From assembly GCA_963664405.1 (NCBI GenBank), contig OY761158.1, positions 5,632,001-5,696,000 of the forward strand: a DNA stretch of 64,000 nt, given 5' to 3'. This DNA comes from Thermoanaerobaculia bacterium. Lineage in GTDB: Bacteria > Acidobacteriota > Thermoanaerobaculia > Multivoradales > Multivoraceae. Of this stretch, positions 21,628 through 27,049 are shown piece after piece. Each line of letters begins with the position of its first letter. The stretch's first letter is position 1. The translations under genes were made by a program, and so were the position numbers. A model generated the notes under the pieces. It was given only the letters and a program-made list of their open reading frames with translations. It searched no databases and had not been told where the DNA came from.

Positions 21628-24600
21628 ATGGGGCAGAGCTTCTACGGGGACCACGGCCATCACGGCCACGACCATGATCACGGGGGTGGACATTCCCACG
21701 ATCACGACCACGGTCACAAGCATGCGCACGACGGCGGTCACGGCCATGACCACGGCGCCCCGGGCTGGGGATATGCGCTGTTCTGCGCCGCGACGGCGGG
21801 GCTGCTGGTTATCTATCTCGCGGGTTTTCTCACCTCGATCTTTGGTGTCGACCTGGCCCTCATCCTTGCCTTCGTAGCAGGCTATCCGCTGATCCGGCAC
21901 GCCATCTCGGACGTCCTTCGCGGCCATCTGTCGTCGCATCTCACGATTGCCATCGCTGCCGGCGCCGCGATCGCGATCGGTGAGTACTTCGCTGCGGCCG
22001 AAGTGATGTTCATCATGCTCATCGGAGAGGGGCTTGAGCATTACACCGTCCATCGGGCACGGCGGGCTATTGCGGGCTTCGTCGAGATGCAACCGGCGAT
22101 GGCTCGCGTCCGGCGGGATGGCGTGGAGGTGGAGGTCGATCCTGTCGAGGTGGCGGCTGGCGAGACTGTGGTGGTGCGGCCGGGAGAGACCGTGCCTGTG
22201 GATGGCAGCGTTCGGGTCGGCAGGTCGAGTGTCGACCAGAGCATGATCTCAGGGGAGCCGATCCCGGTCGAGAAGTCTCCGGGCGACCCGATCTATAGCG
22301 GCAGTGTCAATGAGTACGGCCTGCTCGAGATCGAAGCTGAGCGAGTGGGCTCGGATACGACTCTCGCCCGTATTGCGCGCATGATCGAAGAGGCTCAGGA
22401 GCGGCGGGCGCCGATCGTGCGCATGGCCGACCGCATGGCTCGCTTCTTTCTACCGGCGGTATTGGTGGCGAGTGGCGCGATCTACTTCTTCACCGGTGAG
22501 ATGCTTCGTACTGTCGCGGCCCTCATCGTCGCCTGTCCCTGCGCCCTTGTGTTGGCGACGCCGGCTGCAATGGCGGCTGCTATCGGGCGGCTCGGTCGGC
22601 AAGGCGTGCTGGTCAAAGGCGGCGAGATCATCGAGCGCCTTGCTGCCATCGACGTCGTCGCCTTCGACAAGACCGGAACCCTTACTGCCGGCCGCCCGGC
22701 TGTGAGTGCGGTGATGCCGGTACCCGGTGTCGACGAAGAAGAACTGCTGCGGCTCGCGGCCGGTGCAGAACAGTCATCCGAGCACCTGCTCGGCCGCGCG
22801 GTCGTCGACTCTGCCAAGGCTCGAGGTTTGGTGCTGCCGCCGTCCGAGGGCTTCGAGATGCGCCCCGGCATGGGCGTGACGGCGCTCGTCGAAGGCCGGG
22901 AGGTCGTGGTCGGCACTCGCAAGATGCTTGGTGATTCGCTAGCCGAAGGGGATTGGTTCGACGATGCGCTGGCCTCGGCTTCGTCGGGCGGTCAGACACC
23001 CGTGGCAGTTGCGGCCGATGGCCGCTTGCTCGGAGTTCTCGCCCTACGCGATCCGCTGCGCGATGAGGCCGCCGGAGCGATTGCTTCACTGCGTAACGAC
23101 GGCACCGGGCGCTTGCTCATGCTTACCGGCGACGAAGAGGCGACTGCCGAGTTCGTAGCTCAGGCGGCCGGTATTGATGAGGTTCACGCTCGTCTACTTC
23201 CGGAAGAGAAGGTCCGGCGTCTGCGAGCACTTCGGAGTGAGGGCTTGCGAGTTCTGATGGTCGGGGACGGCGTCAACGACGCGCCTTCGCTTGCCGCCGC
23301 CGACGTCGGACTGGCGATGGGACAGGGTGCGGCTGATCTCAGCGCTGAAGCTGCTCAGGTCGTATTCCTCAAGGATCGACTCGACCAGATCCCATTGCTG
23401 CTGCTCTACGCCAAGAAGACTCTGCTTCGCATCAAGGCGAGCATCCTGCTTTTCGCCTTCGGAGTGAACTTCGGCGCCGTCGGCTTCGCCGCGGCTGGGA
23501 TGCTGAGCCCCGCCTGGGCCGCGATCGTGCACCAGGGCTCCTCCCTGGCGGTGATCTTGAACTGCGTGAGGCTGTTGGTGGAAGGTCGCTCGGTAGAGAG
23601 CGAGCGCGCTGCGACGCCGCTCGCCAGGCTGGCGACGCGGGTTCGGCGTTTTCGTCATGAGATCGCGCGGAGTGGTGGAGAGCGACTGCGGGGGTGGCTG
23701 CGTCGGCGGGGAAGGGCGTTGGCGGTGTGGGGAGCGCGCCTGGCGCTACCGCTATGGATCCTCACCGGTTTCGTCATTATCGCGCCCCAAGAAGTGGGTG
23801 TGGAGCTGCGCTTCGGACGGCAAGCGGGGCAGATTCTTTCTCCAGGTCTCCATTGGCGCCTGCCTTGGCCGATGGCGAAAGTCTTGCGGGTCGAGGCCCG
23901 CCGAGTGCGCGCAGCCGAGGTGGGTTTTCGCTGGCAGGGCGAGTTGACGGAAGAAGATGTGGAGCCGGTCGCCTACGAGTGGAACACTCGTCATGACACC
24001 GGTCGTTATCGCCAGATCGTGGAAGAGAGCGTGATGCTCACCGGCGATGAGAACCTGGTCGAGGTCTACGGGGTGATCCACTACCAGATCGCCGACCCCG
24101 CGGCCTTTGTATTTCGTGCCAGAGATCCGGGCCAGCTGGTCCGTTTGAGCGCCGAGAGCACACTTCGTTGGACCGTTGCGCAGCGTCACCTCGACTCGGT
24201 ACTGACCAGCGAGCGCTATGCGATCGAAGAGGCTTGGAGCGAAGCCCTGGCGACGACTCTGGAGGGCTACGGAGTCGGCGTGGAGATCCTCTCAGCCCAT
24301 CTCATCGAGGTACATCCTCCGTTGGAAGTAGTCGAGGCCTTTCGTGAAGTCGCCAGTGCGCTCGAAGAGCGATCTCGTATCGTCAACGAGGCCGAGGGGT
24401 ACCAGCTCGAACAGATTCCCTTGGCGCGCGGCGAGGCCCAGATGCGCGCACTTTCGGCGCAGGGCTATCGCACCCGCAGGGTGGCACGCAGTCAAGGCGA
24501 GAGCCAGCGCTTCGTCGACCGCGCGCAGAGCTATCGAGTTTATCCGGAGGTCACGCGATCGCGGCTCTACCTCGAGGCTCTGGAAGAGATTCTGCCGGGT

Positions 24601-24720
24601 AGGAGGAAGCTGATTTCCGGTGGCGCCGGCGCGGGGCGAAGACGTTTTCTATTTGTCGAAGAGGGGGCGATTCCGCCGCCCGTGACCCTGGTCGAGCCCG
24701 ACCTGATGGAGCAACCATGA
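21628..24720 (+). CDS. Heavy-metal P1B-type ATPase fused to a C-terminal HflK-like SPFH domain
   Basis: His-rich N-terminus, SGE actuator, [21 protein letters not shown]; then a TM helix and an SPFH domain ([40 protein letters not shown]) in one frame. Confidence 0.93.
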
Positions 24721-25604: not shown

Positions 25605-26588
25605 ATGCCACGACTCGAGGCATTCAAGAACTTCCTCCGAGCGATGAGCGCTCCCGCGGGCGGCTCCTTGCCGAAGTGGCGGATTCTCTTCGGCTCGCTC
25701 GCCGTTCTCTGCGCGATTTGGGGGCTGTACTTCGTGCCTGCCGATCAGCAGGCAGTGGTGATGCGGCTGGGTCGGGTGGTGCGCACGCAGGTTACGCCCG
25801 GCGTGCACTGGACCTGGCCCCCTCCGGTCGGAAGAGTGGTCAAGTTCCGCGCCCGCGAGACTCGGCGTCTGACGGTGGGGTTCTCCGCCCCGGACCGAGC
25901 CCTCGGCAGGGACCCCGCTCCCAGCCTGACGCAGTTTCTGACCGGCGACCGCAACATCATCACGGTTCGTTTGGTGGCGCAATTCGCGGTCAAGGACGCG
26001 GTCTCGTTCCTCTTCGACTTCAGGGACGTCGACGAGCTGGTCCGGAGCACGGCCGAGACGGCGCTTTCAGCAGTGGTGACCCGTCGCGGCGTCGACAATC
26101 TGCTAACGACGGAGAAGGTTGCGGTTCAGCAAGACGTTCATCTTCTATGCCAGGAACTTCTCGACAGCTATGGGGCCGGTGTTTCGATCCTGGGCATGAG
26201 CCTCGAATCGATCAGTCCCCCCGAGCAGGTGCGTGAGGCTTTCAACGATGTCGCCAGTGCTCGCGAGGATCGCGATCGAATCGTGCGCGAGGCACAGAGT
26301 TATGCCAATGAGATCCTGCCTCTGGCGCGGGGCGAGGCGATCAGGGAGATGCGTGAGTCGGAGAGCTACAAAGAGAGTCTGACCCTGCGTGCGAGGGGCG
26401 ATGCTGCGCGTTTCAGCAGTCTCGCTCGAGAGTACGTGCGAGTGCCTGAGCTGACGGCGACGCGCCTGTACCTCGAGGCGATGGAGGAGGTCCTGCCACG
26501 GATGAAAAAGACCCTCGTCGAGGCCGGAACCAACAGCATCGACTTCGATTTCGTGCGGGCCTCACCCGCCTCGGGGGGAAGGCCCTGA
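25605..26588 (+). CDS. hflK: HflK-like SPFH protein
   Basis: PG.HW.WP.P, FLTGDRNII.V, PP.QV.EAFNDV.SARED, ARG.A, RLYLEAMEEVLP. Confidence 0.92.
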   Translation: MPRLEAFKNFLRAMSAPAGGSLPKWRILFGSLAVLCAIWGLYFVPADQQAVVMRLGRVVRTQVTPGVHWTWPPPVGRVVKFRARETRRLTVGFSAPDRALGRDPAPSLTQFLTGDRNIITVRLVAQFAVKDAVSFLFDFRDVDELVRSTAETALSAVVTRRGVDNLLTTEKVAVQQDVHLLCQELLDSYGAGVSILGMSLESISPPEQVREAFNDVASAREDRDRIVREAQSYANEILPLARGEAIREMRESESYKESLTLRARGDAARFSSLAREYVRVPELTATRLYLEAMEEVLPRMKKTLVEAGTNSIDFDFVRASPASGGRP

Positions 26589-27049
26589 AGCGTCATCTGC
26601 CTACCCTGCTCACGATCGCCGTCGTACTCGTCGGGCTATGGTGGACCCAGACGCGGGAGTCGGCGCCGAGTGAAGAGAGTGAGCCGCAGGCGGTTGTGTG
26701 GCGCATGATCGACGAGTCGAAGGCGGCGGACATCGAGGGCTACCTGAGCTGCTTCAGCGGCGATCTTCGCGAGCGCCTGGAGGCGAATCTCCGCCAGATG
26801 GGTGAGGAGGGCTTTCGTGCCTACCTACGAGATCGTCTTGCGGAGCTCAAAGGAGTAGCGATCTACGACGTCGAAGAAAGCGACGCAGAGGCTTCGCTCA
26901 CGGTCGAGTACGTCTTCGCCGAGGAGAGCGAGCGCCAGAGTATGCGCCTGGAGAGGACCCGAGGCACCTGGCGCATCGCCGGAGCCGACGCCTCCCGCCG
27001 CGAGCGCTCCCTAATCCCTTACGGCACTCCCATCGAACAAGCCGAGTAG
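26585..27049 (+). CDS. Membrane-anchored NTF2/SnoaL-like protein, probable CTG start
   Basis: Frame is open upstream of the listed GTG 26696 to a CTG that overlaps the hflK TGA (CTGA), adding KRHLPTLLTIAVVLVGLWW. C-terminal LERTRGTWRI. Confidence 0.7.
   Translation: MKRHLPTLLTIAVVLVGLWWTQTRESAPSEESEPQAVVWRMIDESKAADIEGYLSCFSGDLRERLEANLRQMGEEGFRAYLRDRLAELKGVAIYDVEESDAEASLTVEYVFAEESERQSMRLERTRGTWRIAGADASRRERSLIPYGTPIEQAE

Follow-up and report, generated by a model that had tools for sequence, protein, structure and literature searches.

A gene that joins a P1B-type metal ATPase to an HflK-type SPFH protein in one reading frame lies in a 64,000-nucleotide stretch of the genome of a Thermoanaerobaculia bacterium (phylum Acidobacteriota; GenBank assembly GCA_963664405.1, contig OY761158.1, positions 5,632,001 to 5,696,000 of the forward strand), which was analysed as a whole and is referred to here as the window. 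It is the first of four co-directional genes at window positions 21628-27049 (+ strand), followed by a module-specific hflC, an unfused hflK that we call hflK2, and a small gene whose product is predicted to have an NTF2-like fold:

21628-24720, + strand: fusion gene, ATPase plus HflK; one open frame of 1030 aa, stop codon at 24718-24720
24717-25601, + strand: module-specific hflC; 294 aa, one N-terminal transmembrane (TM) helix; ATGA overlap with the fusion gene
25605-26588, + strand: hflK2, module-specific unfused hflK; 327 aa, one TM helix
26585-27049, + strand: small gene for a TM-anchored NTF2-fold protein; 154 aa given a CTG start at 26585

The start of hflK2 is 3 nt past the hflC stop, and the group is flanked by the divergently oriented ligA upstream and by mdh downstream. 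A sequence-only reading of this stretch had described the 1030-aa ATPase-TM-HflK open reading frame (ORF), an hflC overlapping it at ATGA and a second hflK; all three hold at these positions, as judged from the open frame, the junction sequence and matches to Pfam and NCBIfam families. We lean towards regarding the four genes as one operon, a judgement made jointly with the scaffold interpretation as a whole that is set out below.

Architecture of the ATPase-HflK fusion

Pfam recognized E1-E2_ATPase (residues 153-324, E 3.4e-51), Hydrolase (residues 341-559, E 7.8e-29) and Band_7 (residues 717-924, E 3.2e-19) in the fusion protein, and NCBIfam recognized the heavy-metal P-type ATPase family TIGR01525 (563.2 bits, cut-off 346.25, residues 105-649) and the hflK equivalog TIGR01933 (207.8 bits, cut-off 159.4, residues 715-996). 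In the full-length AlphaFold2 (AF2) model, with a mean predicted local distance difference test score (pLDDT) of 80.3, the ATPase is confident and both halves are folded, with helices 664-682 and 684-712 between them; the C-terminal half comprises the SPFH domain, a ~70-residue helix (899-971) and terminal strands. Along the gene, the protein is divided as follows:

21628-21756, + strand: His-rich N-terminal tail, residues 1-43; predicted disordered, pLDDT <50 for residues 1-44
21757-23577, + strand: P1B-type ATPase core, residues 44-650; eight TM helices and the catalytic motifs
23578-23718, + strand: cytoplasmic linker, residues 651-697; low-confidence hinge at 655-662, then Arg-rich helices
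23719-23787, + strand: ninth TM helix, the HflK membrane anchor, residues 698-720, from hydropathy
23788-24720, + strand: HflK-type SPFH domain, long coiled-coil helix (899-971) and C-terminal strands

Hydropathy and the AF2 helices together place eight TM helices before residue 651. The model puts the anchor helix at 684-712, and this region aligns with the TM region of Escherichia coli HflK (residues 78-144). The linker, which has 14 Arg within residues 651-700, measures 41-65 residues across 119 homologues; the N-terminal tail, which probably binds metal in the cytoplasm, differs in length from one of these proteins to the next and has a median of 5 His. The predicted layout is consistent with the topology of a free HflK, in which the ATPase C-terminus would be cytoplasmic and the ninth TM helix would place the SPFH domain in the periplasm. 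The pump stands in for the cytoplasmic N-terminus of HflK.

Both the fused domain and the hflK2 product (TIGR01933, 213.1 bits, cut-off 159.4) are HflK proteins by the equivalog hidden Markov model (HMM) and by the order of an N-terminal TM helix, then SPFH domain and coiled coil. The adjacent partner HflC, whose gene shares the ATGA with the fusion gene, likewise exceeds its family cut-off (TIGR01932, 198.5 bits, cut-off 134.4).

The fusion is conserved across genomes

All or part of the junction stretch was contained in 20 run rows from 12 studies; no RNA holder was among the runs listed. In four runs from four studies, one contig each spans window positions 23200-24300 with 0 gaps and with 0, 0, 11 and 12 substitutions; the two contigs identical to the window are possibly the source of this DNA. 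The stop or frameshift between the ATPase and SPFH parts for which the sequence-only reading had allowed is thus absent. Residues 640-1030, searched against long proteins only, had 166 matches; among the 120 listed, Hydrolase and Band_7 occur together in every one and E1-E2_ATPase in 119. The fused domain architecture therefore recurs, which contradicts the view that homologues are encoded as unlinked genes only. Because contigs from four studies cross the junction without indels and the homologues keep the architecture, the fusion is not an assembly artefact.

When whole genomes were searched, 11 of 40 relatives had a full-length match in a single frame, as did 22 of 401 genomes (6 of 228 genera) taken as a sample of the phylum. 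Among named genomes, a Thermoanaerobaculia metagenome-assembled genome (MAG) is the nearest, and one homologue of the ATPase fusion is named from Candidatus Sumerlaeota; in all, homologues reach down to ~40% identity in at least two phyla. Public annotation labels such fusions HflK or P-type ATPase, and NCBI names some of the listed homologues as HflK from Holophagales or Acidobacteriota.

These data bear on the simplest alternative, a neutral or accidental merger of a pump gene with hflK, or else an artefact of assembly or annotation. Neighbouring genes do fuse, and one relative holds a broken copy. We nevertheless give this explanation almost no credence: the junction is in frame in contigs of four studies, homologues down to ~40% identity occur in at least two phyla, the linker keeps a length of 41-65 residues, and three unrelated exporter families bear the same fusion beside the same partner genes (see below). 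The conservation data already contradict it.

The module encodes its own HflK and HflC paralogues

The genome carries a separate housekeeping hflK-hflC pair at ~4.11 Mb (G000:C1). The HflC of the module is 50-72% identical to the HflC proteins of other modules and 32% identical to the housekeeping HflC of its own genome, and the gene order fusion-hflC-hflK2 is kept in 24 of 24 other genomes examined. In a phylogeny of 60 rows (quick IQ-TREE, HflC as outgroup), the HflK2 proteins of all three module types found here (ATPase, SO_0444 and CDF; see the following section) form one clade, with a Shimodaira-Hasegawa-like approximate likelihood ratio test (SH-aLRT) value of 95. This clade is sister (97) to nine housekeeping HflK proteins, among them that of the genome itself, so that HflK2 and housekeeping HflK, whose comparison the sequence-only reading had called for, fall in separate clades. 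The fused HflK domains lie outside this pair; the ATPase-fused domains make up one group (81) and the SO_0444-fused domains another (81).

From these sequence comparisons, the SPFH genes of the module are dedicated paralogues distinct from the housekeeping hflK-hflC. An identification of the fused HflK domain as the housekeeping orthologue of E. coli HflK is rejected by the separate pair and by the position of the domain in the tree. Complex prediction for HflK2 with HflC, and with the small protein as partner, returned scores of 0.23 and 0.01 (mark 0.32) and says nothing either way. Contig C1 of the genome has 12 Band_7 matches in all, including, besides the housekeeping pair, a further SPFH pair at ~1.56 Mb and a FloT-like flotillin at ~0.72 Mb.

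Unrelated metal exporters are fused to the same module

A scan of 1.84 billion representative sequences with the HflK part of the fusion gave 8642 matches at E <= 0.001, and the best 150 (50%-identity representatives) were classified by phmmer against exemplars checked with Pfam and NCBIfam. The N-terminal part found in these 150 proteins was as follows:

P1B ATPase: 43
CDF membrane domain: 40
SO_0444-type Cu/Zn efflux permease: 5
no N-terminal domain: 62, with lengths up to 466 aa

The SO_0444 fusions exceed the equivalog cut-off of that family in 4 of 4 cases; no ZT_dimer domain was reported in the seven CDF fusions scanned. Downstream of the fusion, hflC and hflK2 follow in all three SO_0444 loci, which belong to the same taxonomic order as the genome of the window, and in both CDF loci, which come from Eisenbacteria and Hydrogenedentes MAGs. 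One further CDF fusion is named from Candidatus Tritonobacter of the phylum Auribacterota. Since the ATPase can be replaced by CDF or SO_0444 exporters on the same module, these comparisons indicate that the partner of the scaffold is metal export in general and not the ATPase mechanism. We infer an old three-gene module in which the transporter part has been exchanged.

The pump departs from the P1B subgroups compared

The ATPase half has the catalytic motifs SGEP (208), DKTGT (347) and GDGVNDAP (546). DKTGT is present in 119 of 119 homologues, and the hinge reads GDG(I/V)ND(A/S)P; the A-domain loop is TGEP or TGES in 116 of the 119 and SGEP in three, among which is the protein of the window. 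TM4 carries CPC at 303-305, again in 119 of 119. In TM5, Asn614 is kept in the homologues, and the His635-Gln636 pair of TM6 appears as His-Gln in every listed homologue variant. The family HMM, the catalytic motifs, the Cys-Pro-x motif and the 8-TM layout place the protein within the P1B ATPases, and the pump looks active and unusual.

Its best match among solved structures is the P1B-4 pump sCoaT (PDB 7qbz; E 4.1e-100, residues 22-651), which is barely ahead of CopA. The two proteins share a His-rich N-terminus, and His635 falls in the column of the His in the HEGS motif of sCoaT. However, sCoaT has SPC and HEGS where the fusion has CPC and HQGSS, so that only the His is common; membership of P1B-4, which has SPC in TM4 and an HEGxT-type TM6, is excluded by this alignment. 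Unfused pumps from the same and related genomes have CPC/YN/MSxSS at three loci (L119, L120 and L121) and CPC/K/DMG at two (L118 and L123), five of the seven fetched loci being usable, as the longest ORF of L117 and L122 was in a spurious frame. In these pumps, the His635 column holds Met in the Cu-type and Asp in the Zn-type proteins. P1B-1 (Cu+) and P1B-2 (Zn2+), whose motifs were defined by this comparison together with the accessible parts of PMC13460109 and PMC4932525, are likewise excluded, the fusion having VN and HQGSS as opposed to YN/MSxSS or K/DxG. The hallmark of P1B-6, given as N-X18-H-N-X-(S/T) in the accessible part of PMC13460109, differs from the N614-X20-H635-Q-G-S pattern found here.

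By its motifs, CPC in TM4 and an invariant His-Gln in TM6, the pump fits no canonical P1B subgroup among those compared; this combination defines a new P1B subgroup. The substrate is probably a borderline divalent metal (Zn, Co, Cd, Ni or Fe(II)) rather than Cu(I), with the Zn/Co/Cd class likeliest, on account of the putative Cys2-His site, the His-rich tail in place of a CxxC domain, and the substrate overlap with CDF and SO_0444 exporters.

Relation to FtsH

In E. coli, 24 alternating HflK and HflC subunits surround the protease FtsH, according to the accessible part of PMC12048511, in which the N-terminus of HflK is not resolved and the model starts at residue 79. The structures discussed there conflict over the part played by the cage, either shielding FtsH or feeding it. 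One possibility is that the tether holds the exporter beside FtsH in an HflK/C-type chamber, the amount of pump being set by regulated proteolysis; the scaffold would then be a device for substrate delivery or protection and not an efflux platform, although the two roles are compatible.

Both the fused domain and HflK2 exceed the HflK equivalog cut-off, and the genome has one FtsH, its single Peptidase_M41 match, at C1:3008005, 2.6 Mb from the window (C1:5632001-5696000). A contact of FtsH with the SPFH domains of HflK, for which Arg191 is cited, is reported in the accessible part of PMC12048511. In our alignment, Arg occupies the column of E. coli Arg193 (numbered by count on chain 7vhp_E) in 9 of 9 housekeeping HflK proteins, 9 of 10 ATPase-fused and 5 of 8 CDF-fused ones, and in none of 10 HflK2 proteins. 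We nonetheless regard coupling to FtsH as unlikely. A single alignment column is weak evidence, and the Arg191 of the paper does not match, since HMMER coordinates give Ala at 191 and Arg at 185 and 193; PMC13220708 does not mention an HflK Arg residue. The genome already has a housekeeping hflK-hflC pair, and tblastn with its own FtsH detected no ftsH in the window or in 23 module loci (297 kb). The absence of ftsH from the neighbourhood, remarked on in the sequence-only reading, is thus confirmed both by Pfam (Peptidase_M41) and by tblastn.

The small NTF2-fold protein and a possible periplasmic chamber

The first canonical start codon of the small gene is GTG 26696, which would strip the protein of its TM anchor. 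Upstream of it the frame is open and encodes a TM helix, in a segment devoid of ATG, GTG and TTG. A CTG at 26585 shares the sequence CTGA with the hflK2 stop and, in a 23-sequence alignment, falls where homologues of 155-198 aa have their V/M start. This CTG is probably the true, non-canonical start in place of GTG 26696; the public gene call for this genome is 114 aa and omits the membrane anchor. The AF2 model (pLDDT 83.6) comprises one N-terminal helix and an alpha+beta domain. Foldseek against the PDB gave SgcJ (4ovm, E 4.1e-5) within 32 matches at E <= 1e-3, nearly all of them NTF2-like or SnoaL-like, and the predicted fold of the protein is NTF2-like. The small anchored NTF2-like gene of the sequence-only reading is thereby borne out in its fold and corrected in its start.

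The likeness to NTF2-like and SnoaL-like proteins such as SgcJ and the NTF2 domain of RsgI9 (7sjy) is one of predicted fold, from which function is not derivable. The small protein matches no Pfam family, and with its anchor it scores 32.5 bits to NF051431 (Rv0361_Cterm), under the cut-off of 37. To judge by the positive charges that precede the TM helix, the NTF2 domain is probably periplasmic. The gene is present in 13 of the 17 loci with enough flank and thus accompanies most copies of the fusion module in Acidobacteriota; 12 loci have it immediately downstream of hflK2, and L104 has it at another place. No copy was detected at the four loci of genus g107, and the gene lies downstream of none of the five SO_0444 or CDF modules (by tblastn for L024 and L025, otherwise by ORF reading).

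P1B and CDF transporters export from the cytoplasm. A further alternative is that the SPFH cage forms a periplasmic chamber for metal delivery, the closed lumen of which receives the metal that the exporters release. Three unrelated exporter families would then sit on the wall of an HflK/HflC/HflK2 cage with the anchored NTF2-fold protein as lumenal partner, and the divalent metal, of the zinc class, would load exported metalloproteins or be buffered, the aim not being detoxification of the cytoplasm. The direction of transport fits, all three fused families being exporters by family name and, for P1B and CDF, by established direction. A periplasmic location is predicted for the SPFH domains and, from the positive-inside rule, also for the NTF2 domain. 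Moreover, a signal-peptide protein of 950-1014 aa, a DUF3604/CehA-McbA-like metallohydrolase, is encoded at or beside the fusion in genus g11 and at loci L017 and L104. However, no DUF3604-type neighbour occurs in the window, and with 12 or more DUF3604 paralogues in the same genome, chance may account in part for the adjacency seen elsewhere; the metallohydrolase and NicO-like matches fall short of the curated cut-offs, and the pumps would be placed inside the ring by assumption. We consider such a chamber decidedly improbable. If true, it would make SPFH cages reaction compartments for transport products, and not only regulators of proteases.

The DUF3604/CehA-McbA-like proteins, which contain an HxH motif, adjoin the module in three genera and are encoded at L011 14099-16945, L017 1210-4224 and 9809-12853, and L104 9393-12299. 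A 286-aa multi-TM protein with a His-rich loop adjoins the fusion in g11 and g107 (L011 13201-14061; L107, L108 and L115 near 3100-3800); this putative permease matched no Pfam or NCBIfam family. Locus L017 instead encodes a 251-aa protein with a weakly NiCoT/NicO-like N-terminus.

A proposed dedicated scaffold tethering a metal exporter

With moderate confidence, we favour the interpretation that the module is a dedicated HflK/HflC-type scaffold tethering a divalent-metal exporter, probably of the Zn/Co class. By analogy with the 24 alternating subunits of E. coli HflK/C, HflC would alternate with HflK-type subunits, and the HflK-type positions would be split between the pump-bearing HflK and the free HflK2. 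In such a ring or cage, the pumps would be limited in number and gathered in one membrane patch; the assembly may concentrate, organise or regulate divalent-metal export in a single membrane microdomain. That the pump belongs to its own SPFH assembly had been proposed from the sequence alone; the proposal now has a comparative basis in the conserved gene order (24 of 24), the dedicated paralogues and the swapped exporters.

Several observations weigh against this scaffold interpretation. Co-assembly of the three SPFH proteins and the position of the pump relative to the cage would hold by analogy. By our own estimate, a ~70-kDa pump on all 12 HflK positions would make a very crowded ring, and it is because full occupancy would crowd the ring that dilution of the pumps by HflK2 is proposed. 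The placement of the CDF-fused HflK domains is not settled by the tree, and the grouping of the module HflC proteins is weak (77). As to the metal, the NCBIfam scores of the pump exceed the cut-offs of both the Cd-type and the Cu-type subfamilies, and there is no metal regulator or other metal gene beside the operon in the window. Finally, in G419, a complete genome of the same phylum, a 13-nt tandem duplication (L115 6157-6182) breaks the frame just past the HflK TM helix; this copy is a pseudogene or an assembly error, and the gene can therefore be lost.

Of the known SPFH assemblies, the E. coli HflK/HflC-FtsH complex (PDB 7vhp, 7wi3, 9cz1 and 9cz2) contains an HflK that is matched by the fused domain (E 5.7e-37) and by HflK2 (E 1e-39). 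The two systems also share adjacent, translationally coupled genes and the succession of one N-terminal TM helix, SPFH domain, coiled coil and C-terminal strands. In contrast to E. coli, the module has three SPFH genes and not two, its HflK bears an 8-TM metal pump instead of a disordered cytoplasmic N-terminus, and its genes are paralogues of the genome's own hflK-hflC for which no linkage to ftsH was found. In Mycobacterium tuberculosis, PacL scaffolds assemble with CtpC, CtpG and CtpV into effluxosomes, mobile membrane platforms for metal resistance, according to the accessible part of PMC13460109. The P1B ATPases there are likewise co-encoded with a small membrane scaffold protein; on the same partial account, however, PacL lies outside the SPFH family and is a polypeptide separate from the pump. 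A PacL-type effluxosome was rejected for the present locus, no PacL-like family being among the Pfam and NCBIfam matches of the four proteins. Stomatin cages, which enclose AQP1 and UT-B in erythrocytes (PMC12407830, accessible part), resemble the module as SPFH assemblies holding membrane transporters; as described in that part, they differ in being eukaryotic and homo-oligomeric, with non-covalent channels and not primary pumps as clients.

A covalently tethered client and a three-gene SPFH set are both absent from these three systems. Full-text literature searches found no paper on transporter-HflK fusions, in line with the statement of the sequence-only reading that no such system had been characterised experimentally. 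The feature is real and conserved, and it is a new twist on the SPFH scaffold theme. What SPFH cages (HflK/C, prohibitin, stomatin and flotillin) do to the membrane proteins they enclose is still debated. Here the client is peptide-bonded to a subunit of the presumed cage, in three unrelated exporter families; client and scaffold thereby form a defined, stoichiometric pair on which structural and functional studies can be carried out. Conserved but unstudied, the design may reveal how such scaffolds act on the transporters attached to them. Should the scaffold prove to organise efflux, the mycobacterial effluxosome would have a counterpart built from SPFH proteins.

Intergenic regions and repeats

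No Rfam family reached its gathering score anywhere in the window. The 84-nt region between ligA and the operon contains one further feature:

21552-21595, unstranded: imperfect 19-nt inverted repeat, core GAAGTGA-N6-TCACTTC at 21564-21583

This palindrome was considered as a metal operator and rejected. It is kin to a genome-wide hairpin repeat, GAAGTGAT-N4-ATCACTTC, which has 63 sites in the genome as compared with 0 for the control, often in tandem arrays, and it is therefore not read as an operator specific to the operon. Judged by eye, the upstream region of L013 has no obvious shared motif. Putative Zur-like half-sites at 21596-21627 were also spotted by eye only.

The genome-wide repeat looks like a repetitive extragenic palindrome (REP) and matches no Rfam family. 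Within the window, two copies of GAAGTGAT-N4-ATCACTTC lie 68 nt apart at 42286-42373, and at 52934-53575 a 128-nt unit is present five times at 97% identity. Between the small gene and mdh, positions 27058-27575 contain nested inverted repeats with two 99-nt arms that are 81% complementary. Each arm holds a perfect hairpin of 21-22 bp, and the two may be inverted copies of a mobile hairpin element.

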